A stretch of DNA of 64,000 bases, from the NCBI GenBank assembly GCA_022703565.1, contig JAKLDK010000001.1:8017-72016 (forward strand), given 5' to 3'. Both the position numbers and the translations under genes were made by a program. The notes beneath the pieces were generated by a model. The model was not told where the DNA came from. It saw nothing but the letters and a program-made list of their open reading frames with translations, and ran no database searches. Below are positions 7,884-62,832 of this stretch, one piece after another; the first letter of the stretch is position 1, and the number at the start of each line of letters is the position of its first letter. This stretch comes from Candidatus Omnitrophota bacterium (GTDB taxonomy: Bacteria > Omnitrophota > Gorgyraeia > Zapsychrales > Zapsychraceae).

Positions 7884-8548
7884 TGTTATATATTGTTTCC
7901 ACTCCAATTGGAAATCTAGGCGATATTACTTTTCGGGCGGTCGAAATCTTAAAAAATGTTCAATTAATTGCGGCTGAAGACACCCGCCACACCAAGATAC
8001 TCCTCGACAAATATGAAATCAAGACTCCAATGACGAGTTATTTTGAACACAACGAATTTAAAAAGAGCGAAGTTATTTTAAAGGCACTTAAAGAGGGAAG
8101 AGATATTGCTCTTGTAACTGATGCCGGAACGCCGGGCATTAGCGATCCCGGGTATAAATTAATAAAGTTAGCAAAAGAAAATAGTATCCCGATTACGGTT
8201 ATTCCGGGTCCGGCGGCTTTGATTGCGGCTTTAAATTTATCAGGTTTTCCGTCGGATAGCTTTATCTTTGAAGGTTTTATGCCGGTTAAGTGCGGTGCCC
8301 GTCAGAAATTGCTAGATAGTTTTAAGGAGGAATGGCGCACTATAATATTTTACGAATCCCCACACAGGATAGACGAGACAATGGCTGATATCCAAGAGTG
8401 CCTGCCGGATTTTAATGTTGTGATTGCCCGTGAAATTACGAAAAAATTTGAAGAGGTCTTAAGCGGTAAGCCGGCGGAATTATCTGCTATAATCAAAAAC
8501 CACAAATTAAAAGGCGAAATAGTCATCCTTCTTAATAAGGGGAAATAA
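7883..8548 (+). CDS. rsmI: 16S rRNA (cytidine1402-2'-O)-methyltransferase
   Basis: MLYIVSTPIGNLGDITFRAVEIL...AAEDTRHT tetrapyrrole-methylase fold typical of RsmI. Confidence 0.85.
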   Translation: MLYIVSTPIGNLGDITFRAVEILKNVQLIAAEDTRHTKILLDKYEIKTPMTSYFEHNEFKKSEVILKALKEGRDIALVTDAGTPGISDPGYKLIKLAKENSIPITVIPGPAALIAALNLSGFPSDSFIFEGFMPVKCGARQKLLDSFKEEWRTIIFYESPHRIDETMADIQECLPDFNVVIAREITKKFEEVLSGKPAELSAIIKNHKLKGEIVILLNKGK

Positions 8549-49985: not shown

Positions 49986-50318
49986 ATGCCAACCCTAACA
50001 GTATCAGATAAAAGAAGAGAAGAACGAGTCGGTTGCTTTGTCCCGGTAGTCGGAAAAGAAGGCAGTGTTTTTGATCAGACTCAGACAGTAGATTTTAGCC
50101 GCGGCGGATTAGGTTTTATCTCCAAGAAAGAAATTCCTTTAAATAAAGAAATAGCGATTGAAATTAATTTAGGCGCAGAAGAAGATCCTGTTTTCGTAAT
50201 TGGCCAGGTTTGTTGGATTCGTCCGGTATTGAATTCTGATAGATTTAGGATAGGAATTAATTTTAAGGATGTTTTGCGCGGTTCTAAGGCTCGGCTTAAA
50301 GAGTATTTTGACAGATAA
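49986..50318 (+). CDS. Single-domain PilZ protein
   Basis: RREERV (RxxxR) and DFSRGGLGF (DxSxGG) c-di-GMP-binding motifs; 110 aa. Confidence 0.75.
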   Translation: MPTLTVSDKRREERVGCFVPVVGKEGSVFDQTQTVDFSRGGLGFISKKEIPLNKEIAIEINLGAEEDPVFVIGQVCWIRPVLNSDRFRIGINFKDVLRGSKARLKEYFDR

Positions 50319-50336: not shown

Positions 50337-50684
50337 ATGGCGGTAGATGCTAATAAGGTTGAAGATAAGCGTTTTTTTGAGAGATTTCCTGCTAGTTATC
50401 CTGCCCGGGTAAAAGGTACTTTAGACCAATTTGGAGATAATGTTTATTTAAGGGATGCCTCAGCCCAAGGCGCACATATTAGCGCCCGAGGGCCTTTTTA
50501 TTTTAACGACAATGTTACTGTTGAAGTTGATTTGATGGATGGCAAAGATCCGATGACAATAAGAGGCAAAGTTGTTTGGGCTAAACCAAGCAGCAATGAG
50601 TATTGGGATATCGGTTTAAAATTCCACGAAATAAGCTTAATGAATATGTCTAGGGTTTACGGGCAATTCATGAGTTCCACATAG
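50337..50684 (+). CDS. Single-domain PilZ protein
   Basis: KRFFERF (RxxxR) and DASAQGAHI motifs; 115 aa; paralogue of the preceding gene. Confidence 0.75.
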   Translation: MAVDANKVEDKRFFERFPASYPARVKGTLDQFGDNVYLRDASAQGAHISARGPFYFNDNVTVEVDLMDGKDPMTIRGKVVWAKPSSNEYWDIGLKFHEISLMNMSRVYGQFMSST

Positions 50685-50700
50685 TTTTTTGAATATAAAA

Positions 50701-50743
50701 AATAGGGACAGACACCATTTATTAAATAGTGTCTGTCCCTATT
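50701..50743 (+). terminator. Intrinsic terminator with a 15-bp perfect stem
   Basis: AATAGGGACAGACAC, 13-nt loop, GTGTCTGTCCCTATT, then a T-rich tail. The same sequence is the compact form of the element at 399-569. Confidence 0.8.
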
Positions 50744-50822
50744 TATTTAATAAAGTTTTTTGTCTTGAGGTAATAATTTTTCTAAGCTAGAATAGCTCGT
50801 TAAATAATAAATCAAACAGCCT

Positions 50823-53537
50823 ATGCCAGTAAAAAATAATCTTTATTCATATCGTTCAGACGGAATTAGTTTTGTATCCAAAAAAGGTACGCAATTAAGG
50901 ACGCTATATTTCCCTTTGTGCGGGACTAGCGCGAAAAGCCTTAAGTCTTCGATAACGCCTCTTCTTTCCGGTGATATTAAAACTGACAAGAATCATTTCT
51001 TGACCAAGCCTTTATCGACGGAAGACTTGCGAAATACTGTGCGGAATTTTTATGTTAATGTCGCGGACAAAGGCGCGGTGTCATTGTCTCAAATTGGAGA
51101 GATTGAAAATGCTACGATTGAAGCCGGCCAGCTCTGGCATAAGTTGATTAGAAAATTCCCGAAGGAAGGAATAAGGATAGAGGCCGTTAATTTTGTGCCG
51201 GTAACGGATGATAACGTTGAATTAATGCGAGTTAAAATTACCAATATCTCGTCAGATAAAATAAAAATTAACCCTACGGCCAGTATTCCGATTTTTGCCC
51301 GGACATTAGCCAATAAACATGACCACGAAAATGTCACGTCTCTTTTAAACCGAATCGAACAGCTTTCAATTGGCGTTGTTGTCGAGCCGACGATGATTTT
51401 TAACGAAGAAGGCCACCGGGCGGCGGATAGTATTTATTATGTCTTTGGTGCTACTGAATCTGGTGAACTGCCCAAGGGAACTTTTCCGACGGTTAATTCG
51501 TTTTATGGCGATAGCGGAACAGCGGATAGCCCGGAAGCTATTGTAAAAAATAGTATTCCTATGAGCTTATCTAGCGAGGAATTACATGGCCGTGAAGCTA
51601 TGGGAGCTGTTTGTTTTAACCCGGTACAATTATTAGCCAATGAATCGAGAGAATATTTTATTATCATCGGTATTGCCAGGAATAAAGAAGAAGCAATCCA
51701 AGTGTTTGAGAAATATAATTCGCTTGAGAAGCATGACCGAGAGCTTGAGGTATGCAAGGATTTCTGGTTGAATAAATCAAAAGCGATTTCCTTTGAAACT
51801 GGTAATAAAGAATTCAATAGCTGGATGCGCTGGGTTTGCTTGCAGCCGATACTAAGGAGAATATTCGGCTGTTCTTTTTTGCCCGACCATGATTATGGCA
51901 AAGGCGGACGCGGTTGGCGCGATATTTGGCAGGATTTGCTTTCGTTGATTCTAATTGAACCGGAAAATATCCGCACAACATTAATAAATAATTTTGCTGG
52001 TATTAGAATCGACGGGACAAACGCCACAATTATTGGCGCAGAGCCGGGGGAATTTATCGCCGACAGGAATAATATTGTCCGGGTCTGGATGGACCATGGA
52101 GTTTGGCCCTTCTTAACAACTCTTTTATATATTGATCAGACCGGTGATTTTGATATCTTGCTTGAAGAACAGACATATTTTCGCGATAGGCAGCTTTCGC
52201 GTACTCTTAAAAAAGATGAGAGTTGGAATCCGCGTTATATCAACCGCTTAACTGATGAAAATAAACAGATTTATAAGGCAACTATCCTCGAGCATTTGAT
52301 TTTGCAAAATATTGTGCAGTTCTTTAATGTCGGCGAGCATAATATTACCCGTTTGGAAGGTGCGGATTGGAATGACGGATTGGATATGGCATATGAACGG
52401 GGCGAGAGCATTGCTTTTATGAGTTTTTATGGCGGAAATCTTTTAAGAATTGCGGATTTGCTTGAGAATTTGGCGAAAGCTAAGAAAATTGATTCCATAT
52501 CTTTGACGGAAGAAATGGCTGTTTTGTTTGATTCTTTAAATGAGGGAATTGATTACGATAATATTGAGGAAAAGAAGAAATTGTTATTTGAGAAGTATTT
52601 TAATTCGGTCGAGCCTTATGTGAGCGGGCGAAAAAAGGAAATAAAGATTAGCGCTTTGGTAAGCGATTTAAGGAAAAAGGGAACTTGGGTTTTTGAGCAT
52701 ATTCGAAAGAATGAAAAAATAAAGCTTAAAATAGACGGCCGTGAATACGTCTGGTTTAATGGTTATTATGATAACAAAGGTTCTCGGGTTGAGGGTAAGG
52801 TCTATGAAAGCATTCGCATGACTTTGACCGGCCAGGTTTTTCCGATAATGAGCATGCTCGCGAATGAAGAAGAAATAAAACAAGTCGTAGATAGTGTTGA
52901 TAAATTGCTTAAAGATAAGAATTTATCCGGGATTAGATTAAACACTGATTTCAAATTAACGCATTATTTAAATTTAGGCCGAGCTTTTGGTTTTGCTTAT
53001 GGGACAAAAGAAAATGGTTCATTTTTTAGCCATATGAATGTGATGTATGCTTATGGCTTATATTCTCGGGGATTTGCTCATGAAGGTTATAAAATATTGA
53101 AATCAATTTACGAAATGTGCATGGATACGGATAGAAGTAAAATTTATCCCGGAATTCCGGAATACTTTGATTCTCTGGGACGTGGGATGTACCATTATTT
53201 AACCGGTTCGGCCAGTTGGTTTGTTTTAACAAAATTAACACAGAGCTTTGGTATGCGCGGAGAAAAGGGCGATTTGATTATTAACCCTAAACTGGTCAAA
53301 GAAGAATTCGGCGATAAAGGAATTGCATCCATTACAACAAAGTTTGCCGGAAAGAAAATAACGGTTGAATTTGTTAATAAAGAGAAATTGGATTATGGCG
53401 ATTATAACATTGCTGAGGTCAAACTAAACGGTAGCAAAATAGATTTTGAGCGGATAGATCCTAATTGTATCAGAATTTCCCGCAGCATAATCCTCAAAGA
53501 AGAAACAAGCTGTAAATTTACTGTAATTTTGTCTTAG
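50823..53537 (+). CDS. Cytoplasmic (alpha/alpha)6-barrel glycoside phosphorylase/hydrolase, GH94-like
   Basis: 904 aa with no signal peptide. GADWNDGLD at about residue 515 matches the position and sequence of the GH94 catalytic-acid motif. The size matches laminaribiose/cellodextrin phosphorylases. Family assigned by pattern only. Confidence 0.5.
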   Translation: MPVKNNLYSYRSDGISFVSKKGTQLRTLYFPLCGTSAKSLKSSITPLLSGDIKTDKNHFLTKPLSTEDLRNTVRNFYVNVADKGAVSLSQIGEIENATIEAGQLWHKLIRKFPKEGIRIEAVNFVPVTDDNVELMRVKITNISSDKIKINPTASIPIFARTLANKHDHENVTSLLNRIEQLSIGVVVEPTMIFNEEGHRAADSIYYVFGATESGELPKGTFPTVNSFYGDSGTADSPEAIVKNSIPMSLSSEELHGREAMGAVCFNPVQLLANESREYFIIIGIARNKEEAIQVFEKYNSLEKHDRELEVCKDFWLNKSKAISFETGNKEFNSWMRWVCLQPILRRIFGCSFLPDHDYGKGGRGWRDIWQDLLSLILIEPENIRTTLINNFAGIRIDGTNATIIGAEPGEFIADRNNIVRVWMDHGVWPFLTTLLYIDQTGDFDILLEEQTYFRDRQLSRTLKKDESWNPRYINRLTDENKQIYKATILEHLILQNIVQFFNVGEHNITRLEGADWNDGLDMAYERGESIAFMSFYGGNLLRIADLLENLAKAKKIDSISLTEEMAVLFDSLNEGIDYDNIEEKKKLLFEKYFNSVEPYVSGRKKEIKISALVSDLRKKGTWVFEHIRKNEKIKLKIDGREYVWFNGYYDNKGSRVEGKVYESIRMTLTGQVFPIMSMLANEEEIKQVVDSVDKLLKDKNLSGIRLNTDFKLTHYLNLGRAFGFAYGTKENGSFFSHMNVMYAYGLYSRGFAHEGYKILKSIYEMCMDTDRSKIYPGIPEYFDSLGRGMYHYLTGSASWFVLTKLTQSFGMRGEKGDLIINPKLVKEEFGDKGIASITTKFAGKKITVEFVNKEKLDYGDYNIAEVKLNGSKIDFERIDPNCIRISRSIILKEETSCKFTVILS

Positions 53538-53688
53538 AAATAATTTATAAAACAAAAAATAGGTGCTAAAGCGAGTGCTTTAATCTCTTTGGCAAATAAA
53601 TATATTATATGTTATACTTCAATTCCAACAGAAGAAAACGCTTTCTTTGGATTAAAAAATAAAAAACAATATTTTAGGAGGAAAAGAG

Positions 53689-56600
53689 ATGTTTAAGAAA
53701 GTAATTTTATTGGTTTTAGGGTTAGTTTTACTTTTATCGGCCAATGTTTTTGCCCAAAACATGTTTTCAAATGCTGATTTCTCTAACGGCGTAAATGGTT
53801 GGTCAACAGTTGGATATCCGTTTTATGCTATTGTCAGAGCGCCAAATTATGCTGCGGAAAACACAATAACAACAGTTTCTGACCGCGATTATTTCGCAGA
53901 AATTTATCAGGTAATTACTCCTTTTACCGCCGGCGATCCGGTTTATATGACCGCTGAAATAAAAACACAGCTAGATCCAGGTTCAAGTGCTAGCGGTGGA
54001 ATTATCGTTGAATTTCTAAATGCTTCAAATAATGTTTTAAATACAATTACAACATCTGTTGTTGGCAATACGAATTGGAATACAGTTTATGTTACCGGAA
54101 CAGCTCCGGCGGGAACTGTTAAAATCAGAGCTGGTGCTTTTGTTTTTGCGGCGGAAGATGATAGTGCTGCTTTAAACGGAAAAGTTAGTGTTGATAATTT
54201 ATTTATTGATAATATTCAAGCTCCGGGCGGCGGGCTTATTACAAACCCAGGTTTTGAATCACAAATAAGCGGATGGACAACAGGCGTTGGCTCGTATCCC
54301 TTTATTGCTTCAACCGCACAAACTCATTCCGGAGTTTATTCTGCATATGATGCTGTTAATAGTGTGAGTGGAGATTATTGGGGATTTATTTATCAAACTC
54401 CGACGGTTCCAGTGGGCGGTACGATTTATGCTTCAGCGTGGGGAAAAACCGAGATTAGCCCTCTTTCATCAGCAGTTGGCGGATTAATAGTTCAATTTTT
54501 AAATTCAAGCGGAGTTCTAATTTCAAAATTAGAATCAAAAATTGGCGGAAATACTGATTGGCATCAGCTTTATGTTTCAGGAACAGTGCCTGTTGGTACC
54601 GTAACAATTAAAGTTGGTGGATATCTTTGGGCCGCAAATGGTGATAGCGCCGCTCTTGGCGGTAAAGTATATATTGATGATTTCGCGGTCTCAACAACTC
54701 CAATTCCTCCGCCGCAGCAACCGCAGGAATTAATTAATTCTGATTTTGAAAATGGAGTTAATGATTGGGCTTGGATTTACCGTCCTTTTGTGGCAAGCAC
54801 AACTGCGCATACTGGAATTTATTCAGCAAAACATAATATTGGCAACACGACGGGCCCGAATGATTATTTAGCCGAAATTTATCAGGAAATTCCTTTTACT
54901 GCCGGAAATGTTGCTTATTTGACCGGCTGGGTTAAGACAAATATAAATCCTGCAAGGACTGCGGTAGGTGGTATTAAGGTTCAATTTGTTGATGCTGCTG
55001 GTACGTTAATTGGTGCGGCTTCTCAGGCTGATCGTGACGGAATCAATGATTGGACGCTTCTTTACGTAAATGCTGTAGCTCCGACTGGAACAGCTAAGGT
55101 TAGAATTAGTGCCTTTGCTTGGGCGGATAACAATCAAGGCACAGTTAACGGGGATGTTTTTATAGACGGCCTGGCATTCTCCAATACTCCGCCGAGTTCA
55201 CTGCTTCTAAATTCAAGCTTTGAAAGCGATATGGCAGGATGGACACAAGATGCAACCGGATATCCGATGACAGCTGTAACCGAAGAACATCGTACTGGCG
55301 CAAAATCAGCAAAGACAACGATTCAGCTTCCCGGGGGAAGTTCTGATTTCTGGTCGAGAATCTATCAGGAATTTACAATTGTTCCGGGACAAGCTTTATA
55401 CGCAACAGCTTGGGCGAAGACCGCGATTAATCCGTCTTCGACGGGAACTGCTGGCTTGAAAATAGAATTCTTTAACGGTACTACTCCGACGGGATCGGTT
55501 ACTTCAAATACTGTTGGTGGGCAAGCCGGATGGACATATCTTTATGCTTTTGCAACCGCACCAGCTGGAACAACAAAGGCTCGCATCAGCCCTTTTGTTA
55601 GTTGCCCTCGCGCAACAGCAAATTTAGGCGGAAATGTTTATTTTGATGATGTTTATGGTTCATTCGACCAGCTTCCTCCCCCGGCATTTAGGACAGCTTT
55701 GATCAACGCTAGTTTTGATGACGGAAGTGGGCTAGGAGGATGGACGGACCTTTATGGTTTACCGACGACGCTAGATTCTATAAATTCTTATTCAATTCCA
55801 TATTCGGCAAAAAAGACATTCGCGCAAATTCCGGATCAGGATTATTACACTACTGTCTATCAAGATATTTACTATAATGCAAATGGTACGCCATTTCCGA
55901 CGGCAAGAAATGTGTATTTAGCTGCTTATATTAAGACGGCAATTAATCCTTTGGCAAATGCTTCGGGTGGAATTGCGCTTGAATATTTTGATGAAAGCGG
56001 CGAAGCTTACACAATAGATACTGATCAGGTTAGTGCAAACAATGATTGGCGGCAGCTTTATGTTTCCGGAACGATTCCAGCGGGGGCAACCAAAGTGAGA
56101 GTTTTGGGATTTGCGTTTGCTCCGTTAGGTGAAACTTTAGCTGATAACGGAATTGTTAATTTTGATAATTTTAACTTTTCCTATAACTACATTCCGGAAC
56201 AAGTTCAAACATCGTTGTTGAATGTTGGATTTGAAAACGGATTGAATGATTGGGATCAGTTAAATCGTTTAGCCGGAATTACACAAGCTCCGGTTCATGG
56301 AGGGAACTATTCTTCATATTTTGACATTCAGGTTGATTTAGTAGATCCTCAAGATTATTATGGAACATTGTCACAAGATATTGCTGTTTTACCTGGGAAG
56401 ATAGTAGAAGCCAGCGCTTGGGTTAGTACGGATATTTACCCGCTTACAAATGCTCAAGCCGGTATAAAATTACAATTTATTGACGGCAATGGACAGGCAA
56501 TTGGTCCGGAATATACAAACGGAATTGGCGGCAATACCGGGTGGACTCAACTAAGTTTGGTCCGAACTGCTCCGGCACAAACAGCTAAAGTTCGGTATAT

Positions 56601-57135
56601 TTTATTCTTGTATGCGGAAGGCCTTTCGGCAATTAACGGAGATAGGGCTTACTATGATGACGCTTCTTTGCTTATCCGTAATGCTCCTGGCCCAGGATGC
56701 TTTTTAGCTGAAACTCCGATTACCTTATCAGATGGCTCAACTAAGCCTATTGAAGAAATAAAAATAGGCGATATGGTTATGGCTTACAATGAAGAGACAA
56801 AGACATTAGAAACTAATGAAGTAACAACAATTTTCAATCATGACAAGGAAGATGTTTATTTGCTGGTCAACGGTACTCTTAAGGTTACTCCGGTTCACCG
56901 TGTTTTAACTAAAGGCGAGTGGAAGGAAATCGGTACATTGGCTGTAGGCGATACCTTAACCGATATGAAAGGCAATGATGTTCTTATTGCTTCAATAGAA
57001 AAAGTTAACGAAAAGGTCGATATCTATAATTTTGAAGTATCGCCTCTTCATACCTACATAGCTGGCGGATTTATAGTTCACAATAGAAAACTAAACTATA
57101 CAATAGCTTTTGGCGATGGGAATGGAACTCGTTAA
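53689..57135 (+). CDS. Secreted protein with six tandem CBM4/9-like carbohydrate-binding modules and a C-terminal Hint (bacterial intein-like) domain
   Basis: Signal peptide. Six ~165-aa repeats each open with N-x-x-F-E/S-x-G-x-x-G/D-W and close with a V-x-h-D-D/N-h motif. The final 145 aa are CFLAETPITLSDG...VTPVHRVL...GGFIVHN followed by a 16-aa tail: Cys1, a TxxH-like block, and terminal His-Asn with no +1 nucleophile. Confidence 0.75.
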   Translation: MFKKVILLVLGLVLLLSANVFAQNMFSNADFSNGVNGWSTVGYPFYAIVRAPNYAAENTITTVSDRDYFAEIYQVITPFTAGDPVYMTAEIKTQLDPGSSASGGIIVEFLNASNNVLNTITTSVVGNTNWNTVYVTGTAPAGTVKIRAGAFVFAAEDDSAALNGKVSVDNLFIDNIQAPGGGLITNPGFESQISGWTTGVGSYPFIASTAQTHSGVYSAYDAVNSVSGDYWGFIYQTPTVPVGGTIYASAWGKTEISPLSSAVGGLIVQFLNSSGVLISKLESKIGGNTDWHQLYVSGTVPVGTVTIKVGGYLWAANGDSAALGGKVYIDDFAVSTTPIPPPQQPQELINSDFENGVNDWAWIYRPFVASTTAHTGIYSAKHNIGNTTGPNDYLAEIYQEIPFTAGNVAYLTGWVKTNINPARTAVGGIKVQFVDAAGTLIGAASQADRDGINDWTLLYVNAVAPTGTAKVRISAFAWADNNQGTVNGDVFIDGLAFSNTPPSSLLLNSSFESDMAGWTQDATGYPMTAVTEEHRTGAKSAKTTIQLPGGSSDFWSRIYQEFTIVPGQALYATAWAKTAINPSSTGTAGLKIEFFNGTTPTGSVTSNTVGGQAGWTYLYAFATAPAGTTKARISPFVSCPRATANLGGNVYFDDVYGSFDQLPPPAFRTALINASFDDGSGLGGWTDLYGLPTTLDSINSYSIPYSAKKTFAQIPDQDYYTTVYQDIYYNANGTPFPTARNVYLAAYIKTAINPLANASGGIALEYFDESGEAYTIDTDQVSANNDWRQLYVSGTIPAGATKVRVLGFAFAPLGETLADNGIVNFDNFNFSYNYIPEQVQTSLLNVGFENGLNDWDQLNRLAGITQAPVHGGNYSSYFDIQVDLVDPQDYYGTLSQDIAVLPGKIVEASAWVSTDIYPLTNAQAGIKLQFIDGNGQAIGPEYTNGIGGNTGWTQLSLVRTAPAQTAKVRYILFLYAEGLSAINGDRAYYDDASLLIRNAPGPGCFLAETPITLSDGSTKPIEEIKIGDMVMAYNEETKTLETNEVTTIFNHDKEDVYLLVNGTLKVTPVHRVLTKGEWKEIGTLAVGDTLTDMKGNDVLIASIEKVNEKVDIYNFEVSPLHTYIAGGFIVHNRKLNYTIAFGDGNGTR

Positions 57136-57159
57136 GAGTATTTTGTAGCGATTGGCAAA

Positions 57160-57188
57160 GGAGGCTTGAAAAAGCCTCCTTTTTTTTG
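57160..57188 (+). terminator. Intrinsic terminator
   Basis: GGAGGCTT-gaaa-AAGCCTCC followed by TTTTTTTTT. Confidence 0.85.
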
Positions 57189-57231: not shown

Positions 57232-57260
57232 TTGACTTAAGATATATAAGACCTTATAAT
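57232..57260 (+). promoter_or_regulatory. Consensus sigma70 promoter of the ABC transporter operon
   Basis: TTGACT, 17-bp spacer, TATAAT (57255-57260). Confidence 0.65.
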
Positions 57261-57336
57261 TGCGCGTAAATATTTTTTGGCGCATTGTTGTCCATTTTTT
57301 TTATTAGGAATATATCTTTTTGAAATAAAGGATGTT

Positions 57337-58659
57337 ATGAAAAAAATAGTCAGTATAATTATTGTTTTTATTCTGTTTGTTAGTCTTGCCATTTTTCTCA
57401 ACAAAGGTAATAAAAAAGATAATCAAAAAAGAATAGTCTTGTGGCATTGGATGACTGACCGCGACAAAGCCCTGCAGGAATTATCCAGACAATATAAAGA
57501 ACTAACTGGCGTCGAAATCGATGTCGAATTATACGCCCCTTCAAAAGTTTATGCCCGAAAAATTACTGCTGCTGCTCAAGCTAAAGTCCTGCCGGATATA
57601 TACGGGATTCTAGATACAAAAGAAACTTTTGCAAATTATATTAAAAGCGGGCTTGTGGCTGATTTAACTGAGGAATTTAAGAAAAATAATTCAGCTTTGG
57701 AAAAAACATTCTTTCCTAAAGCGCTCGATGTTAACAGGTTTAAAGAGGGGAATATTTATGATATTTCTCCCGGTATTTACGGAGTGCCGCTAGATATAAC
57801 CATTATTCAGATGTTATATAACAAGAATCTTTTAGCTAAGGCTGGATTTAAGAACCCTCCGAATAATTTTGCTGAATTCGTAACGCAGTTGAAAGCTTTA
57901 AAGCGAATCGGAATAAACGGTCTGGTTTCCGGTTGGGGTGAATTATGGTTAATTGATTGCTTCGCTTTAAATTATGCTTTTAACATTATGGGCGAAGAAA
58001 AGATTATGGCTACCTTTAGAGGCGAAATCCCGTATACTGACCCGGACTGGATAACGGTTTTCGGTTTGTTTAAAACTCTCAAAGATATCGGCGGGTTGGC
58101 GGAAGGAATTATTACCAAGGAAAATAAATATGCCGAACAAGATTTTGCTTTAGAACGCGCGGCTTTTGCTTTTAATGGTTCCTGGTGTTTAAATGTTTAC
58201 AATAAAATGAATCCCAGCCTTGTTTATAGCGCAATGCTTCCTCCGGCGATAAATGCGGATAAACCGATGATGATTTGGGGTGGAGCCGGATCTTCTTTTG
58301 TTGTGAACAATAATTCTAAGAGCAAAGAAAAAGCCATTACTTTCTTAAAATGGTTATCGGCTAAAGATCAGCAGGCTTATTTGTCAAAAGAAACGCAAAA
58401 TTTGCCGGCGAATAAAGATTCTTTGGTCGACATTCCGGATGTATTGGCTGGTTTTGCAAAAGTAATGGATAATACCACTCATCCGACAATATGGAAATAC
58501 AATGAAAATTCTCTTGTTGCCGAGCGGTTTGATAAGGGAATCCAGTCTATAATTTTAGGGGATAAAACTCCTGAGCAGGTTGGACAAGAAGTTCAAGAAG
58601 AAAAAGAAAAGCAAATAGCGAGAGAAAAACGTCGGCAGCAAAGAAAACAAAATAATTAA
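57337..58659 (+). CDS. ABC transporter substrate-binding protein (carbohydrate, SBP family 1)
   Basis: N-terminal signal anchor plus the family-1 extracellular solute-binding fold (MalE-like). Start at the ATG at 57337. Confidence 0.75.
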   Translation: MKKIVSIIIVFILFVSLAIFLNKGNKKDNQKRIVLWHWMTDRDKALQELSRQYKELTGVEIDVELYAPSKVYARKITAAAQAKVLPDIYGILDTKETFANYIKSGLVADLTEEFKKNNSALEKTFFPKALDVNRFKEGNIYDISPGIYGVPLDITIIQMLYNKNLLAKAGFKNPPNNFAEFVTQLKALKRIGINGLVSGWGELWLIDCFALNYAFNIMGEEKIMATFRGEIPYTDPDWITVFGLFKTLKDIGGLAEGIITKENKYAEQDFALERAAFAFNGSWCLNVYNKMNPSLVYSAMLPPAINADKPMMIWGGAGSSFVVNNNSKSKEKAITFLKWLSAKDQQAYLSKETQNLPANKDSLVDIPDVLAGFAKVMDNTTHPTIWKYNENSLVAERFDKGIQSIILGDKTPEQVGQEVQEEKEKQIAREKRRQQRKQNN

Positions 58660-59579
58660 TGAAATACGAAAAAGTAAGAAATTTAGTAATCCGGGACTAT
58701 CTAATAAATTTCTCTTTTGCTTTGCCGGCAATTGCGATCTTCAGCATTTTTTATATTATTCCTTTCTTTGAAGTTTTCCGCCTATCTTTGATGGACTGGA
58801 ACGGAACTTTCCCTCCGGCCGAATTTATTGGCCTGGAAAATTTTAGCGAGCAATTTCATGATAATCTTTGGTGGGGCTCGATGCTTCACGCGGGATTTAT
58901 TACGCTTATTGCTTTGACCTTGCAAAATGTTTTAGCTTTTGCCTTAGCCTTGGCTTGTGACCGGGAAATAAAAGCAAAACGATTTTATCAGGTAATGTTT
59001 TTTATCCCGCCGGTCTTATCGGAAGTTGTCGTCGGGCTTATTTGGCAATGGATTCTTTATTTCGGGATGCAGGGCGGCGAGCATATCGGGCTTTTAAACC
59101 ACTTTTTGGCAAAGACCGGTTTACCGAATTTGGTGCATAACTGGCTTTCTGACCCGAAAACCGCATTGCCTTGTATTGCGATTGTGCACGCTTGGAAAGG
59201 TTTCGGTTGGGGATTTATTATGTTGTTGGCGGGATTGCAAACAATTGATAAGCAGCTTTATGAAGCGGCTAAGGTTGATGGCGCTGGTAATTGGCACGTT
59301 TTTCGTCATATTACCGTGCCGATGATGATGCCGATTATTGTGGTTGTTATGATTCTTACAGTTTTAGGCTCGATGCAGGTGTTTGTTTTGATTCTAGCAA
59401 TGGTGGGAGAAGGCGGATTGGCGGATTATACCAGCGTCCCAGTCTTAAAAATTCTGGGCTCGATGAATGGCGCGAAAAGATTTGGTTATGCTTGCTCGCA
59501 AGCTATATCGTTTGGGTTAATTTTGGTTTGTGTTTCGGCATTTTTTAAAATTATTTCTAACAGGACTAAACAGGCATAA
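58659..59579 (+). CDS. ABC transporter permease (MalF-like)
   Basis: 6-TM BPD_transp_1 fold with an EAA-type loop (AAKVDGAGNWHVFRHITVPMM). Confidence 0.8.
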   Translation: MKYEKVRNLVIRDYLINFSFALPAIAIFSIFYIIPFFEVFRLSLMDWNGTFPPAEFIGLENFSEQFHDNLWWGSMLHAGFITLIALTLQNVLAFALALACDREIKAKRFYQVMFFIPPVLSEVVVGLIWQWILYFGMQGGEHIGLLNHFLAKTGLPNLVHNWLSDPKTALPCIAIVHAWKGFGWGFIMLLAGLQTIDKQLYEAAKVDGAGNWHVFRHITVPMMMPIIVVVMILTVLGSMQVFVLILAMVGEGGLADYTSVPVLKILGSMNGAKRFGYACSQAISFGLILVCVSAFFKIISNRTKQA

Positions 59580-59581
59580 GA

Positions 59582-60427
59582 ATGAGAACAGTAAATTATC
59601 AGGCGATTAATACTTTGAAATCAGTTGTTATTCATTCTTTTTTGATTTCGGTTGCGATGACCTGTATTTTTCCTATTTTCTGGATGGTGCGTTCTTCTTT
59701 GATGACACCGTCTACAATATTCTCGGATAAGTCTTTTATTCCCAAGGAAATACATTTTGAGAATTATTATTTTGCTTGGATGGAGGGCGGTTTTGGAGCG
59801 TACTTCCTAAATAGTGTTTTATATACTACAACCGTTGTTGTGGGGATTGTTATTATTGCTTCATTAGCGGCATATGCGTTTTCTCGCCTACAATTTCCGG
59901 GGAAGAACTTCTTTTTTTATATGTTTGTCGGCGCGATGATGATTCCACTCCCGGGGAGTTTCGTTCCGCTTTATGTGTTAATGAATAAGCTGGGGTTGCT
60001 TAATTCCCGGCTAGGTTATATACTTTGTATGATTAATGTCGGACTTTCCTTAAGCATCCTTATTTTAAAAACATTTTTTGATAAGATGCCTTCTGATTTA
60101 GAGGAAGTGGCAAAAATCGACGGTTGCAGCCGTTTGGGGATTTGGTGGCATGTGGTGCTTCCTTTGGCTCGGCCGGCAATTGCGGTAATTGTTATTTTTA
60201 ATTCTTTGAATGTTTGGAACGAATATATCTTGGCAATGCTTTTGTTAAATGACAAAGCCAAGATGCCTCTACAGATTGGTATAATGCAGTTTCAAGGTGC
60301 ATATAGCGTCGATTATCATCTTTTGATGGCCGGACTGACAATCGCGGCTGTGCCGATAGTTTTGATATATCTAGCTATGCAAAAACATATTATTAAAGTA
60401 CTAGCCTCAGGAGCGGATCTCGGTTGA
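59582..60427 (+). CDS. ABC transporter permease (MalG-like)
   Basis: EAA loop EVAKIDGCSRLGIWWHVVLPLARPAI. No ATPase gene is adjacent. Confidence 0.8.
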   Translation: MRTVNYQAINTLKSVVIHSFLISVAMTCIFPIFWMVRSSLMTPSTIFSDKSFIPKEIHFENYYFAWMEGGFGAYFLNSVLYTTTVVVGIVIIASLAAYAFSRLQFPGKNFFFYMFVGAMMIPLPGSFVPLYVLMNKLGLLNSRLGYILCMINVGLSLSILILKTFFDKMPSDLEEVAKIDGCSRLGIWWHVVLPLARPAIAVIVIFNSLNVWNEYILAMLLLNDKAKMPLQIGIMQFQGAYSVDYHLLMAGLTIAAVPIVLIYLAMQKHIIKVLASGADLG

Positions 60428-62832
60428 GACAACAAAAACATAAAATCATAATTCTCGCGTTTCTTTTCTTAACCTTTTCTAATTTTGTACTTGCCGAAGA
60501 AAAACCAGAAAAAAAAGAAGACGTTATTACTAGGGCGACTCCTAAGGTTAACCTAGACAAAGGCCTGCAGACTCCGGAAGGCCAAGATATTCCTAAGGAG
60601 CCGGAAATTTCTTCTCAAGAATTAATTAAACAATTATGGGAAGCTAATGCTAAAAACGATTTGGCTCAGGTCGAAGAACTAACTGCAAAATGTTTAAGCA
60701 TTTTTGATAAGACTGCCCGAGAGCAGCAGGCTCTTTTAAAAGGTTTTCCGGCTAGAGGCGAAGAAAGTTTTTATCAAGAATTAAATGATACAGGAGGGTG
60801 TTTATTCGTTCATGCCGAAGAATTAAGAGATTTTGGGAAAAAAGATGAGGCTATTAAAGAATGCCAAAATGTGATTGATAATTATGGCTGGTCGCAGCAA
60901 TGGGACCCTTCCCGCGGGGCTTGGTGGTCGGTTGCTGAAAAATGTTCGGAACTAATCGCCGATTATAATTACGACGAGAAAACAGAAGAAGCTAAGGAAG
61001 TGAAACAGATAATTGTAAAGCCGGTTCTTTATAATTACGGCAAAACCCAGGTTGTTGACTATACAAAATATGGCCGTTTTAAAGATGTCGGAAAACCTAC
61101 CTACAAATATTCTATCGCTGATATCGAAGGGTTGTCTGCCGCAGCAGGAGAGGGTATTTACCCTAATACTAGTGATATTTATAACAATCCTCGCTACAAG
61201 GAAGTTAAGGCCGCTGGCAGGTTGGAAGGTTCCCAGTGGGATTATGTTCGTACGCCGGATTTAGAAGCGGCATATTTTAAGTGGGCTACAGCTCCGGAGC
61301 CTTGGGGAGTTAAGCTTTTTTATATGGGATTGATTTTTGAGAAGGCACAGATGTGGCACGAAGCCTTAAAGGCTTATCATGCGATTGTAGTACATTTTCC
61401 AAAGACGATTGCCTGGACTTATTGGCAGACGCCGTGGTATCCTGCCCAAGCCGCGATTGCTAAAATAAGATATTTGTTGAGAATCCATCCGGAATTAAAT
61501 TTGCAAGAAAAATGGATGAAAGTTGAAGTGGTAAACGGTTTTGATAATGATTCGCAAAATGATATTTTTATAACTTATCCCGGAAAAATAATTAAAAAGA
61601 ATTTAATCGAAATAGCAAAAGAGAAATTTAACATTGGGCGAAAAGTTTTTCTGGGTAAAGTAAAGAGAAGATTAGGCGAAGGAAAAGTCCGGCTGGTGCA
61701 ATACGAAAATAATCACTGGCAGCTTATTGTTGATGGGAAGCCGTATATTGTTAAGGGAATTACTTATGCCCCAACAAAGATAGGAGAATCTCCCGACAAA
61801 GGTACTCTAAAGAATTGGATGGACCAGGATACCAATAATAATGGCAAAGCCGATGGCCCTTATGATGCTTGGGTTGATCAAAACAAAAACAATATTCAAG
61901 ATGATAATGAGCCTACTGTCGGTGATTTTAAAATCATGAAAGATATGGGGGCAAACACCATCCGTGTTTATGAGCAGCCGAATTTTAAAATTAATAAGAA
62001 GTTAATGAATGAAATGTTCGCGAATTATGGTATCAGGGTTATTTTGGGTAATTTCTTGGGTAAATATGCGATTGGGTCAGGAGCGAGTTGGAGTGAAGGG
62101 ACCGATTACGATAATCCGGAGCATAAAAAAAATATGATGGAAGATGTTAGGAAAATGGTTATGGACCATAAAGATGAACCATATTTGCTGATGTGGTTGC
62201 TTGGCAATGAAAATAATTATGGAGTCGCAAGCAACGCTGATAAAAAACCGGAAAGTTATTTTAAATTTGTTAATGAAGTTGCACAAATGATAAAAACAAT
62301 TGATCCTAATCATCCGGTTGCAGTAAACAATGGGGATACTCTTTATTTGGATGTATTCGCCAGGCATTGCCCAGATGTTGATATTTTTGCTGGAAATATT
62401 TATCGTGGTGACTATGGTTTCGGTTCTTTCTGGGAACAAGTTTTTGGCTCGAGTGGAAAAGCGGCTTTGGTTACAGAATATGGTTGCCCGGCTTTTGCCA
62501 AACATTTATTGCCCGAAGAAAGGGAAGAAGCCCAGGCAGAATATCACCGCGGGAATTGGCTGGATATTGTTGATAATAGTGCCGGTTATAAAAATGGCGT
62601 TGGTAATGCTTTAGGTGGAGTTGCTTTTGAATGGCTGGATGAGTGGTGGAAAAATTATCAGCCTTTTAGGCATGATCGAAAAAGCGATGCTATCGGGCCT
62701 TTCCCTGGGGGGTATTATTTTGAGGAATGGTTTGGATTGATTGGCCAGGGGAATGGACAGAATAGCCCATTTTTGCGTCAGCCAAGAAAAGTGTTTTATA
62801 CCTATAAGGAGCTTTGGAATACTGACAATTAA
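60424..62832 (+). CDS. Secreted clan GH-A TIM-barrel glycosidase (GH5/GH2-like) with an N-terminal helical repeat domain
   Basis: Signal peptide. Beta1 motif DFKIMKDMGANTIRVY; acid/base LLGNENNYG; nucleophile ALVTEYGCP about 90 aa downstream. A D-x-D-x-N-G-x-x-D Ca-loop-like segment (DQDTNNNGKADGPYD). The N-terminal ~125 aa are homologous to the repeats in the next gene. Confidence 0.6.
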   Translation: MRQQKHKIIILAFLFLTFSNFVLAEEKPEKKEDVITRATPKVNLDKGLQTPEGQDIPKEPEISSQELIKQLWEANAKNDLAQVEELTAKCLSIFDKTAREQQALLKGFPARGEESFYQELNDTGGCLFVHAEELRDFGKKDEAIKECQNVIDNYGWSQQWDPSRGAWWSVAEKCSELIADYNYDEKTEEAKEVKQIIVKPVLYNYGKTQVVDYTKYGRFKDVGKPTYKYSIADIEGLSAAAGEGIYPNTSDIYNNPRYKEVKAAGRLEGSQWDYVRTPDLEAAYFKWATAPEPWGVKLFYMGLIFEKAQMWHEALKAYHAIVVHFPKTIAWTYWQTPWYPAQAAIAKIRYLLRIHPELNLQEKWMKVEVVNGFDNDSQNDIFITYPGKIIKKNLIEIAKEKFNIGRKVFLGKVKRRLGEGKVRLVQYENNHWQLIVDGKPYIVKGITYAPTKIGESPDKGTLKNWMDQDTNNNGKADGPYDAWVDQNKNNIQDDNEPTVGDFKIMKDMGANTIRVYEQPNFKINKKLMNEMFANYGIRVILGNFLGKYAIGSGASWSEGTDYDNPEHKKNMMEDVRKMVMDHKDEPYLLMWLLGNENNYGVASNADKKPESYFKFVNEVAQMIKTIDPNHPVAVNNGDTLYLDVFARHCPDVDIFAGNIYRGDYGFGSFWEQVFGSSGKAALVTEYGCPAFAKHLLPEEREEAQAEYHRGNWLDIVDNSAGYKNGVGNALGGVAFEWLDEWWKNYQPFRHDRKSDAIGPFPGGYYFEEWFGLIGQGNGQNSPFLRQPRKVFYTYKELWNTDN

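Follow-up and report, generated by a model that had tools for sequence, protein, structure and literature searches.

The stretch of DNA studied here (the window; 64,000 nucleotides, positions 8,017 to 72,016 of the forward strand of contig JAKLDK010000001.1 from a Candidatus Omnitrophota bacterium) contains an uninterrupted open reading frame at 53689..57135 of the plus strand. The encoded protein of 1148 amino acids (aa) is made up, in this order, of a signal peptide, six modules of ~160 aa, a 129-aa Hint domain, and a 16-aa tail. A preliminary description of the gene had read it as an array of carbohydrate-binding modules (CBMs) capped by an autoprocessing domain of the bacterial intein-like (BIL) kind. 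According to the present analysis, the gene probably encodes a secreted, multivalent glycan-binding protein of a sugar-uptake locus, with an intact, toxin-free, and self-excising type-A BIL Hint domain at its C-terminus.

The C-terminal module is a Hint-superfamily domain with the horseshoe β fold. Its best-scoring Pfam family was PF07591 (Pretoxin HINT, PT-HINT), which matched aa 1018-1128 (E = 2.2e-14; 54.3 bits, gathering cutoff 27.7). Weaker matches of the Pfam families Vint, Intein_splicing, Hint, and Hom_end_hint overlapped on the same region, and the NCBIfam models for the N- and C-terminal intein splicing regions scored below or near their thresholds. In a sequence search of the PDB, the best match was 2LWY, a "bacterial intein-like domain" (E = 1e-11), with further matches to Tetrahymena BIL2 (1e-7), to the RecA and DnaB mini-inteins (~1e-7), and to Hedgehog 1AT0 (0.04). 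The structure was modeled with AlphaFold2 from ten orthologous Hint domains, and the core of the model had a predicted local distance difference test (pLDDT) score above 90. Comparison of this model with the PDB using Foldseek placed BIL2 (6Y75) on top (E = 5e-12), the BIL and intein matches ranging from 5e-12 to 1e-9, and 2LWY, the BIL of C. thermocellum, near the top with a TM-target of 0.87 and a root-mean-square deviation of 1.6 Å. The top five entries were all BILs; mini-inteins, Vint, and Hedgehog (rank 34) came after them. At E <= 1e-3 there were 65 PDB matches, and among the 50 listed all were BIL, intein, Vint, or Hedgehog Hint domains. Judged by its ranks in the PDB and Foldseek searches, which served as the proxy for an A-type-specific profile, the domain is closer to characterized BILs than to inteins or Hog domains. 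The profile searches thus placed the region in Hint and not in an unrelated β-sandwich family, and the assignment to the BIL type made in the preliminary description was borne out by PF07591, 2LWY, and the Foldseek ranking.

The landmarks pointed out earlier, an initial Cys (CFLAETPI), a VTPVHRVL block, and a GGFIVHN end, correspond to Cys1004, Thr1067-Pro-Val-His1070, and His1131-Asn1132. As had also been stated, His-Asn is followed by Arg (Arg1133) in place of a nucleophile, and the tail measures 16 aa when this Arg is counted. What had been called a 145-aa module has that total length but is composed of the 129-aa Hint domain plus the tail, which was predicted to be disordered (AlphaFold2 pLDDT <50). 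Conservation was examined in two alignments, A2 with ten orthologues (29-61% identity in the Hint region) and A3 with 49 distant relatives that share only the Hint domain. Cys1, the block-B T-x-x-H motif, and the terminal His-Asn were invariant in both, which is the pattern expected from purifying selection on catalysis, although it is not proof of activity. The residue at position +1 was Arg or Lys in 10/10 orthologues. When the window protein was compared with its closest orthologue, P0002 (P numbers designate the homologues), the Hint domain was 63% identical, the same value as that of the cargo (63%).

Type-A BILs have the His-Asn pair and no nucleophile at +1 (PMC4031507, PMC7765530). They give chiefly N- and C-cleavage products, yet they can also splice (PMC4031507, PMC7664689), since Asn cyclisation frees the α-amine of the C-flank, which then attacks the N-terminal thioester (PMC4031507, PMC7664689, PMC7765530). 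The earlier statement that a domain of this configuration cannot splice was too strong for this reason. In Tetrahymena BIL2, where Cys1 and a terminal Asn are likewise present, the ε-amine of Lys reportedly resolves the thioester to give an isopeptide, and a ubiquitin-like domain is reported to be conjugated to other proteins without ATP (PMC8616854). With its terminal His-Asn, its Arg at +1, and its place in a secreted protein whose C-terminal region varies, the window Hint matches a type-A BIL in sequence, and on the strength of this match, autoprocessing is predicted at both junctions.

Other identities were considered for the domain and rejected. A Hedgehog-type domain was discarded on the basis of the Pfam Hint model PF01079, which on aa 1003-1056 reached 25.9 bits, under its cutoff of 29.7, and of the region past the window Hint, in which no sterol-recognition or adduct-recognition region was found, the 16-aa tail being too short for one. 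A canonical class 1 intein does not agree with Arg at +1, a non-conserved 16-aa tail, and no extein continuation, and orthologues without a Hint domain terminate at the same point. A truncated toxin gene or a frameshift was rejected in view of the tail length and motif, which are common to relatives, and of the terminator past the stop codon.

The N-terminal cargo consists of six repeats that are 28-41% identical to one another and share invariant N, F, W, Q, W, and D positions. Each one matched a profile derived from the repeats themselves with E = 5e-65 to 2e-71, and the same repeats, six to eight per protein, were present in 17 homologues. They had been described as CBM4/9-type; their number and, by fold, their superfamily stood, but a Pfam scan of the window protein at E <= 0.1 gave no match to PF02018 (CBM_4_9). 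The profile matches that it did have, to Mann_GBD_bact, NTTRR-F1, and the Mep72 C-terminal domain, were weak. Across the family, 4/32 repeats matched PF02018 at E <= 0.01 (best 3.6e-6), and precomputed PF02018 matches existed for the orthologues P0002, P0004, P0008, and P0009, faint where their strength was given. A profile of the 32 family repeats searched against the PDB found CBM16 (E = 1.6e-3) and, weakly, also CBM22, a mannanase CBM, and phage fibre tips.

Repeat 2 was modeled with AlphaFold2 (pLDDT 97.1, predicted TM score 0.90), and Foldseek returned the CBM16 structure 2ZEY as its best match (E = 3.9e-9), with CBM61, CBM4-2, and CBM22 down to 1e-6. Identity to these CBM structures was 18-22% at TM 0.6-0.75, and the distal domains of phage tailspikes matched equally well. 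The fold is the same as that of the CBM16 modules from the C. polysaccharolyticus ManA-type endoglucanase (2ZEY/2ZEX/3OEA), although identity to them is low, and an N-terminal L-x-N-P-G-F-E...W motif in the repeats agrees with the CBM superfamily. From the modeled fold and the weak profile matches, the repeats are assigned to the β-jelly-roll CBM4/9/16/22 superfamily, in which they probably form a distinct, divergent, and unclassified CBM family. We infer that they bind carbohydrate, in a context of GH94-like, GH2-like (glycoside hydrolase families 94 and 2), and sugar ATP-binding cassette (ABC) transporter neighbors.

The gene order around the array, PilZ-(PilZ)-GH94-[CBM array-Hint]-SBP-permease-permease-GH2/TPR (SBP, substrate-binding protein; TPR, tetratricopeptide repeat), was also found around P0002, P0009, and P0013. 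The contigs of these syntenic orthologues span from 18 kb to >1 Mb, and the synteny holds for orthologues with either of two Hint subtypes. P0002, from an organism labeled Candidatus Omnitrophota at NCBI, is 61% identical to the window protein, and the orthologues have N-termini equivalent to its signal peptide. The GH94-like neighbor received no informative NCBIfam name. Judged by its gene content, the neighborhood is a conserved carbohydrate-utilisation or sugar-uptake locus; Pfam and NCBIfam searches of the window proteins found no toxin, immunity, Rhs, or two-partner-secretion genes in it. The features of the locus are listed in Table 1.

Table 1. Features of the CBM array-Hint gene and its surroundings, in window coordinates.
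Feature	Position	Strand	Residues, basis, and remarks
Two PilZ-domain genes	49986-50318, 50337-50684	+	Pfam; 110 and 115 aa, single-domain
GH94-like gene	50823-53537	+	Pfam
Promoter-like site	53589..53618	+	TTGGCA-18-TATACT with extended TG, ~70 nt 5' of the start codon; consensus scan 10/12, pattern match only
Sec-type signal peptide	53689..53754	+	aa 1-22, MFKKVILLVLGLVLLLSANVFA followed by QN; read from the sequence, cleavage site inferred
CBM-like repeat 1	53761..54234	+	aa 25-182; repeat alignment A1 and repeat HMM boundaries
CBM-like repeat 2	54235..54717	+	aa 183-343; repeat chosen for the AlphaFold2 model
CBM-like repeat 3	54727..55200	+	aa 347-504; alignment A1 and repeat HMM; sub-threshold NTTRR-F1 match at aa 348-474
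CBM-like repeat 4	55201..55686	+	aa 505-666; alignment A1 and repeat HMM; weak Mann_GBD_bact match at aa 510-558
CBM-like repeat 5	55696..56205	+	aa 670-839; repeat alignment A1 and repeat HMM
CBM-like repeat 6	56212..56697	+	aa 842-1003; ends in the Gly-rich linker NAPGPG, Gly1003 is the -1 residue
Hint domain, type-A BIL / PT-HINT kind	56698..57084	+	aa 1004-1132; Pfam, PDB search, model and Foldseek
Hint catalytic codons	Cys1004 56698-56700; Thr1067...His1070 56887-56898; His1131-Asn1132 57079-57084	+	
Tail RKLNYTIAFGDGNGTR and stop codon	57085..57135	+	aa 1133-1148, 16 aa counting Arg; +1 is Arg1133, +2 is Lys1134
Intrinsic-terminator-like hairpin	57157..57182	+	strong hairpin, 11-bp stem, then a T-run; 22 nt past the stop codon
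Promoter-like site before the SBP gene	57232-57260	+	near consensus, 11/12 matches; pattern match
Sugar ABC SBP, two permeases, GH2-like/TPR protein	57277..62832	+	Pfam and NCBIfam

Three further observations concern the upstream part of the locus. The PilZ pair was kept in synteny in at least three other genomes, which hints at control of the locus by c-di-GMP. A perfect inverted repeat with a 20-bp stem and T-runs, AAATAGGGACAGACACTATTT...AAATGGTGTCTGTCCCTATTT, lies at 50700-50744, between the second PilZ gene and the GH94-like one; it is terminator-like on the minus strand and, being palindromic, may act on both strands. Just 5' of the syntenic block, giant genes were found on the contigs of P0002 (L001, 1-4179) and P0009 (L083, 1-5131); they were called at 85,803 and 13,491 residues, respectively, and both run past the fetched locus. 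The window has no giant gene at the equivalent place; its upstream genes there are a CvpA-like gene, MnmE, a Mur ligase, and PurH.

When the Hint domains of the orthologues were compared, it was observed that orthologous CBM arrays carry two Hint subtypes that are 36-45% identical to each other. Hint domains on unrelated cargo proteins were 54-64% identical to the window Hint, for example those of the GH2-like hydrolase P0069 and the BNR/PKD protein P0040, and tails on unrelated cargo were near-identical to that of the window (RKLNFTIAVDGNGSNY in P0069, compared with RKLNYTIAFGDGNGTR) or had a similar motif (RKLPYTIYDPGGGP in P0037). The ten Hint-bearing orthologues have tails of 7-20 aa, with the exception of P0004. 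In this protein, aa 1028-1262 comprise a subtype-a Hint, 16 residues, and then only the C-terminal half of a subtype-b Hint, which is all but identical to its counterpart in P0007, an arrangement that looks like the scar of one C-terminal cassette displacing another. Other family members have no Hint domain: P0011 and P0014 simply end, and P0012 and P0015-P0018 (1.1-1.9 k aa, 4-8 repeats) have a long, unrelated, low-complexity C-terminal region in its place. P0010, a six-repeat member of the CBM family, has a duplicated type I dockerin exactly at the Hint position (4DH2_B, E = 3e-5 in the PDB sequence search); Pfam gave no match for its C-terminus. It lies outside the syntenic locus, with gyrase and HTH genes nearby (L082, 9001-12243), in a genome labeled Planctomycetales. 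A break in GC content at third codon positions (GC3) that would mark recent acquisition was not found at the window Hint, its GC3 being 0.32 against 0.23-0.33 in the repeats. Taken together, these sequence comparisons suggest that the Hint domain and its tail form an exchangeable C-terminal cassette across secreted proteins of Omnitrophota, Planctomycetota, and other phyla. As a separate observation, P0012 and P0015-P0018 share a conserved ~100-aa C-terminal domain ending in LVWSRxFKTSRFHPS[WY][EK]V; P0018, the sole member of this group scanned against Pfam, had no significant match.

With the Hint domain and its tail as the query, an exhaustive HMMER search matched 15,912 representative proteins (E <= 1e-3), while a word-indexed search with the Hint domain alone had found 4. 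The counts of tails and junctions given below rest on the best 150 of the 15,912 proteins plus 79 genome loci. Single Hint domains were present in 66 of the best 150, and 54/66 of these end <=25 residues past His-Asn; the closest relatives in species-representative genomes have tails of 4-19 aa. The short-tailed proteins came from Omnitrophota, Planctomycetota, Acidobacteriota, Dadabacteria, Saccharibacteria, and Woesearchaeota, the Candidate Phyla Radiation (CPR) and the DPANN archaea being among these taxa. In some alphaproteobacterial and CPR proteins the Hint domain is internal. The PT-HINT relatives from actinomycetes have 96-140 aa past the Hint domain and often Cys, Ser, or Thr at +1, which is what true polymorphic toxins should show. 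Among 49 terminal-Hint proteins, the cargo was varied and consistently extracytoplasmic, with Ig-like, PKD, FG-GAP, cadherin-like, β-helix, subtilase, papain, GH2, BNR, and pilin-like N-methyl domains. An N-terminal hydrophobic region was detected in 52/76 terminal-Hint proteins by a simple heuristic for Sec-type signal peptides. From these sequences, the toxin-less terminal Hint layout appears to be a widespread class in several little-studied phyla.

The junctions were examined in 94 non-identical terminal Hint domains, 87 of them scorable at -1 and position 1, with 252 non-terminal Hint domains for comparison. Position 1 was Cys in 78/87, and the commonest residue at -1 was Gly (40/87), inside a Gly-rich linker. 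Lys was present at +1 or +2 in 83% of the terminal and 60% of the non-terminal domains (Fisher P = 4e-5, the sequences not being independent), whereas Cys, Ser, or Thr at +1 was found in 2% and 16%, respectively. As both His-Asn and Lys at +1/+2 are conserved, the C-terminal junction should matter too; a purely Hedgehog-like transfer would not need that. Two or more Hint matches were present in 84 of the best 150 proteins. Inspection of the 14 with the most matches revealed mostly head-to-tail Hint arrays with only K-G(n) linkers between them (...VHN-KG-CF...), and this mode of joining accounts for the flank preference.

Several features of individual clade members stand beside these counts. 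Prepilin-type leaders (GFTLVEI...) and N_methyl or ComP_DUS matches were found in P0023, P0031, P0085, P0091, P0103, P0113, P0148, and P0080; these eight are type IV pilin- or pseudopilin-like proteins with a C-terminal Hint domain. Arrays of 4-8 Hint domains occur in P0025, P0047, P0067, P0073, P0090, P0159, and others. P0025 has a signal peptide, five Hint domains, a transmembrane segment, and ~400 more residues, and its ectodomain would dismantle itself if all of its Hint domains were active. Many other tails in the clade contain paired Cys residues (GGGYCGKKGCYAQ, CPGGGGCSK, PPCDPLCDP, CAEGDPGYPQCP) or Pro-rich KAAPP motifs. The window tail has neither; its R-K-[LV]-N-[YF]-T-I...DG-x-G motif recurs in P0003, P0037, and P0069.

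For the window protein, the following course is proposed from the established chemistry of the family. After export and folding, the Gly1003-Cys1004 bond would be converted to a thioester by an N-S acyl shift, with Thr1067 and His1070 assisting, and cyclisation of Asn1132, assisted by His1131, would cut the Hint domain from the 16-aa tail. Water could resolve the thioester, leaving a free CBM array that ends in Gly1003; alternatively, an amine (the α-amine of Arg1133 or the ε-amine of Lys1134) could resolve it, and the tail would be joined to the CBM array. In either case the Hint domain would remove itself in a single turnover. The mature array would most probably capture a glycan, possibly a β-glucan. 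The adjacent ABC transporter would take up fragments of this glycan, and the GH94-like and GH2-like enzymes would process them.

Several points weigh against this account, the weakest point of which is that a self-removing domain gives no explained benefit. A "release of the CBM array," as proposed earlier, has no obvious meaning because neither the Hint domain nor the tail has an anchor. The autoprocessing of the terminal-Hint clade is predicted from conserved residues only, and the junction statistics come from related, non-independent sequences. The window repeats fall short of the Pfam CBM_4_9 threshold, the glycan ligand being putative. The proposed export would also have to cross the outer membrane of a diderm cell.

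The leading alternative, although it appears unlikely, is covalent anchoring or conjugation. The Gly1003~Cys1004 thioester would be passed to an external amine or hydroxyl, so that the CBM array becomes fixed covalently to the cell surface, as in the cholesteroylation of Hedgehog or the conjugation by BIL2; candidate acceptors are envelope lipids such as phosphatidylethanolamine, peptidoglycan, surface glycans, and Lys residues of partner proteins. Simple release achieves little when neither Hint nor tail has an anchor, and in P0010 a type I dockerin, a non-covalent anchoring module, occupies the Hint position; P0010 lies outside the syntenic locus, however, so this swap may mean a different role. 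The Gly at -1 in a Gly-rich linker resembles the Hedgehog cleavage site, and the same cassette is found on many surface proteins, prepilin-like ones included. BIL2, the top structural match, is reported to transfer its N-flank to Lys of other proteins (PMC8616854), a precedent that, by analogy, makes covalent transfer of the CBM array possible, as had been suggested in the preliminary description. Against anchoring, no sterol- or ligand-recognition region follows the Hint domain, and a conserved partner gene was not identified. Moreover, the invariance of His-Asn and the enrichment of Lys at +1/+2 point to intramolecular chemistry at the C-terminal junction. A rather improbable reading is that the cassette is a selfish or neutral passenger that spreads by recombination among genes for secreted proteins and excises itself harmlessly. 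It would account for the decoupling of Hint identity from cargo identity (54-64% on unrelated cargo against 36-45% on orthologous arrays), for the P0004 scar and the Hint-less orthologues P0011 and P0014, and for the tandem Hint arrays, which suggest duplication-prone elements. A passenger, however, is hard to reconcile with several findings: there is no homing endonuclease, the domain sits at the protein end and not at a conserved essential site, it is kept at the same position in syntenic orthologues of both subtypes, and its GC3 is indistinguishable from that of the host gene. The clade-wide combination of secreted cargo, Gly at -1, Hint domain, and Lys-containing tail argues for a selected function.

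Another reading, in which the protein is an inter-bacterial toxin with the Hint domain as its pre-toxin release module, and either its C-terminal toxin has since disappeared or the 16-aa tail acts as the effector, is highly improbable. The best Pfam family is named "Pretoxin HINT" and the NCBI name of P0002 is of the polymorphic-toxin type; cassette exchange and the P0004 scar resemble the dynamics of polymorphic toxins, and distant actinomycete relatives carry modules of ~100-140 aa past the Hint domain. At the window gene, however, only 16 disordered residues follow, a terminator lies past the stop codon, and the next gene encodes a sugar-binding protein and not an immunity protein; the lack of a toxin module rules the reading out for this gene. 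Short tails were found in all 10 Hint-bearing orthologues (the P0004 scar apart) and in 54/66 close relatives, and within the conserved carbohydrate-utilisation cluster Pfam detected no Rhs/YD, two-partner-secretion, or other delivery domains. Equally hard to sustain is a catalytically silent Hint fold that serves as a structural or binding module without processing. Hint folds can lose activity, and a five-Hint ectodomain of the P0025 type would fall apart if every domain were active; nothing specific speaks for it otherwise. The invariance of Cys1, of the block-B Thr and His, and of His-Asn in 10 orthologues and 49 relatives would be hard to explain without catalysis. The self-excising type-A BIL thus remains the account that we favor.

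A broader proposal, which we consider doubtful, is that the terminal Hint cassette (Gly at -1, Cys1...His-Asn, and a short Lys-containing tail) is a general, energy-independent, single-use ligation device in Omnitrophota, Planctomycetota, CPR, and DPANN archaea. The C-terminus of the cargo would be turned into a thioester and passed to an amine of the envelope or of a partner protein, and glycan-binding proteins, hydrolases, and pilin-like proteins would be anchored in this way. If true, the device would be a prokaryotic counterpart of Hedgehog lipidation, of sortase anchoring, and of the ubiquitin-like conjugation by BIL2. A thioester that serves ligation or anchoring would explain surface decoration by ultra-small uncultured bacteria and would add a natural C-terminal ligation tag for protein engineering. 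Should the self-excising Hint domain favored here do nothing but remove itself, it would offer a clean model in which to study the reasons for which self-excising domains survive outside essential genes.

The novelty claimed in the preliminary description held in part. We found no account in the literature of a CBM array with a terminal Hint domain, nor of a toxin-less terminal-Hint class; however, NCBI already names P0002 a "polymorphic toxin-type HINT domain-containing protein," a BIL domain is known from the cellulosomal scaffoldin ScaO of C. clariflavum (PMC4582956), and a statistical study of 2014 reported that PF07591, PF13403, and PilZ co-occur at the genome level with the cohesin and dockerin families among degraders of plant biomass, an association "of unknown relevance" (PMC4189754). 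The domain and its chemistry are already known and automatically annotated; the recurrent toxin-less terminal layout, its flank signature, and the link with glycan binding go beyond current models. The Hint and PilZ elements of that association are physically adjacent in the window locus, which gives it a physical meaning.

Among known systems, the closest counterparts of the window Hint are type-A BILs such as 2LWY, with which it shares the Hint fold, Cys1, T-x-x-H, the terminal His-Asn, and the absence of Cys, Ser, or Thr at +1. Both lie in variable parts of secreted proteins that are not conserved, the cassette of the window protein being swapped or missing among orthologues. Unlike them, the window Hint caps a CBM array encoded in a sugar-uptake locus, and only 16 residues separate it from the end of the protein. 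The reviews place BILs inside hypervariable regions of secreted proteins, with no mention of a terminal toxin-less class (PMC4031507, PMC7664689, PMC7765530; the type-A BIL work of Amitai 2003, Dassa 2004, and Aranko 2013 is cited as summarized there). The PT-HINT domains of polymorphic toxins (Zhang/Aravind; PMC3417536) belong to the same Pfam family and show a similar recombination of C-terminal cassettes, but they come with a released C-terminal toxin and a linked immunity gene, neither of which is present at the window gene. The residue at +1 differs as well, being Arg or Lys in the window clade and frequently Cys, Ser, or Thr in the toxin-bearing actinomycete relatives. In the standard view, bacterial HINT domains release toxins (PMC3417536), and the automatic "polymorphic toxin-type" annotation is misleading for genes like this one.

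The BUBL BIL2 domain of Tetrahymena thermophila (6Y75/6TMM), the top structural match, uses Lys chemistry (PMC8616854), which can be set beside the Lys at +1/+2 in 83% of the terminal clade. It is eukaryotic and intracellular and has ubiquitin-like flanks, whereas the window Hint has a secreted CBM array as its N-flank and a C-flank of 16 aa. Hedgehog is cleaved between the Gly and the Cys of a G-CF site, and its Hint domain is not known to have the intein-type His-Asn. Hedgehog/Hog proteins and the window protein share a secreted N-terminal cargo and a C-terminal Hint domain that starts at G-CF, with the Cys1 thioester as the route to modification of the cargo C-terminus; they differ in that sequence similarity is marginal (1AT0, E = 0.04) and His-Asn is kept in the window Hint. 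Hint domains are known from three settings, namely selfish inteins, the release of polymorphic toxins, and Hedgehog lipidation. The window protein and its relatives show a fourth recurrent setting, in which ordinary secreted proteins terminate in an apparently active BIL-type Hint domain that has nothing of substance to release.

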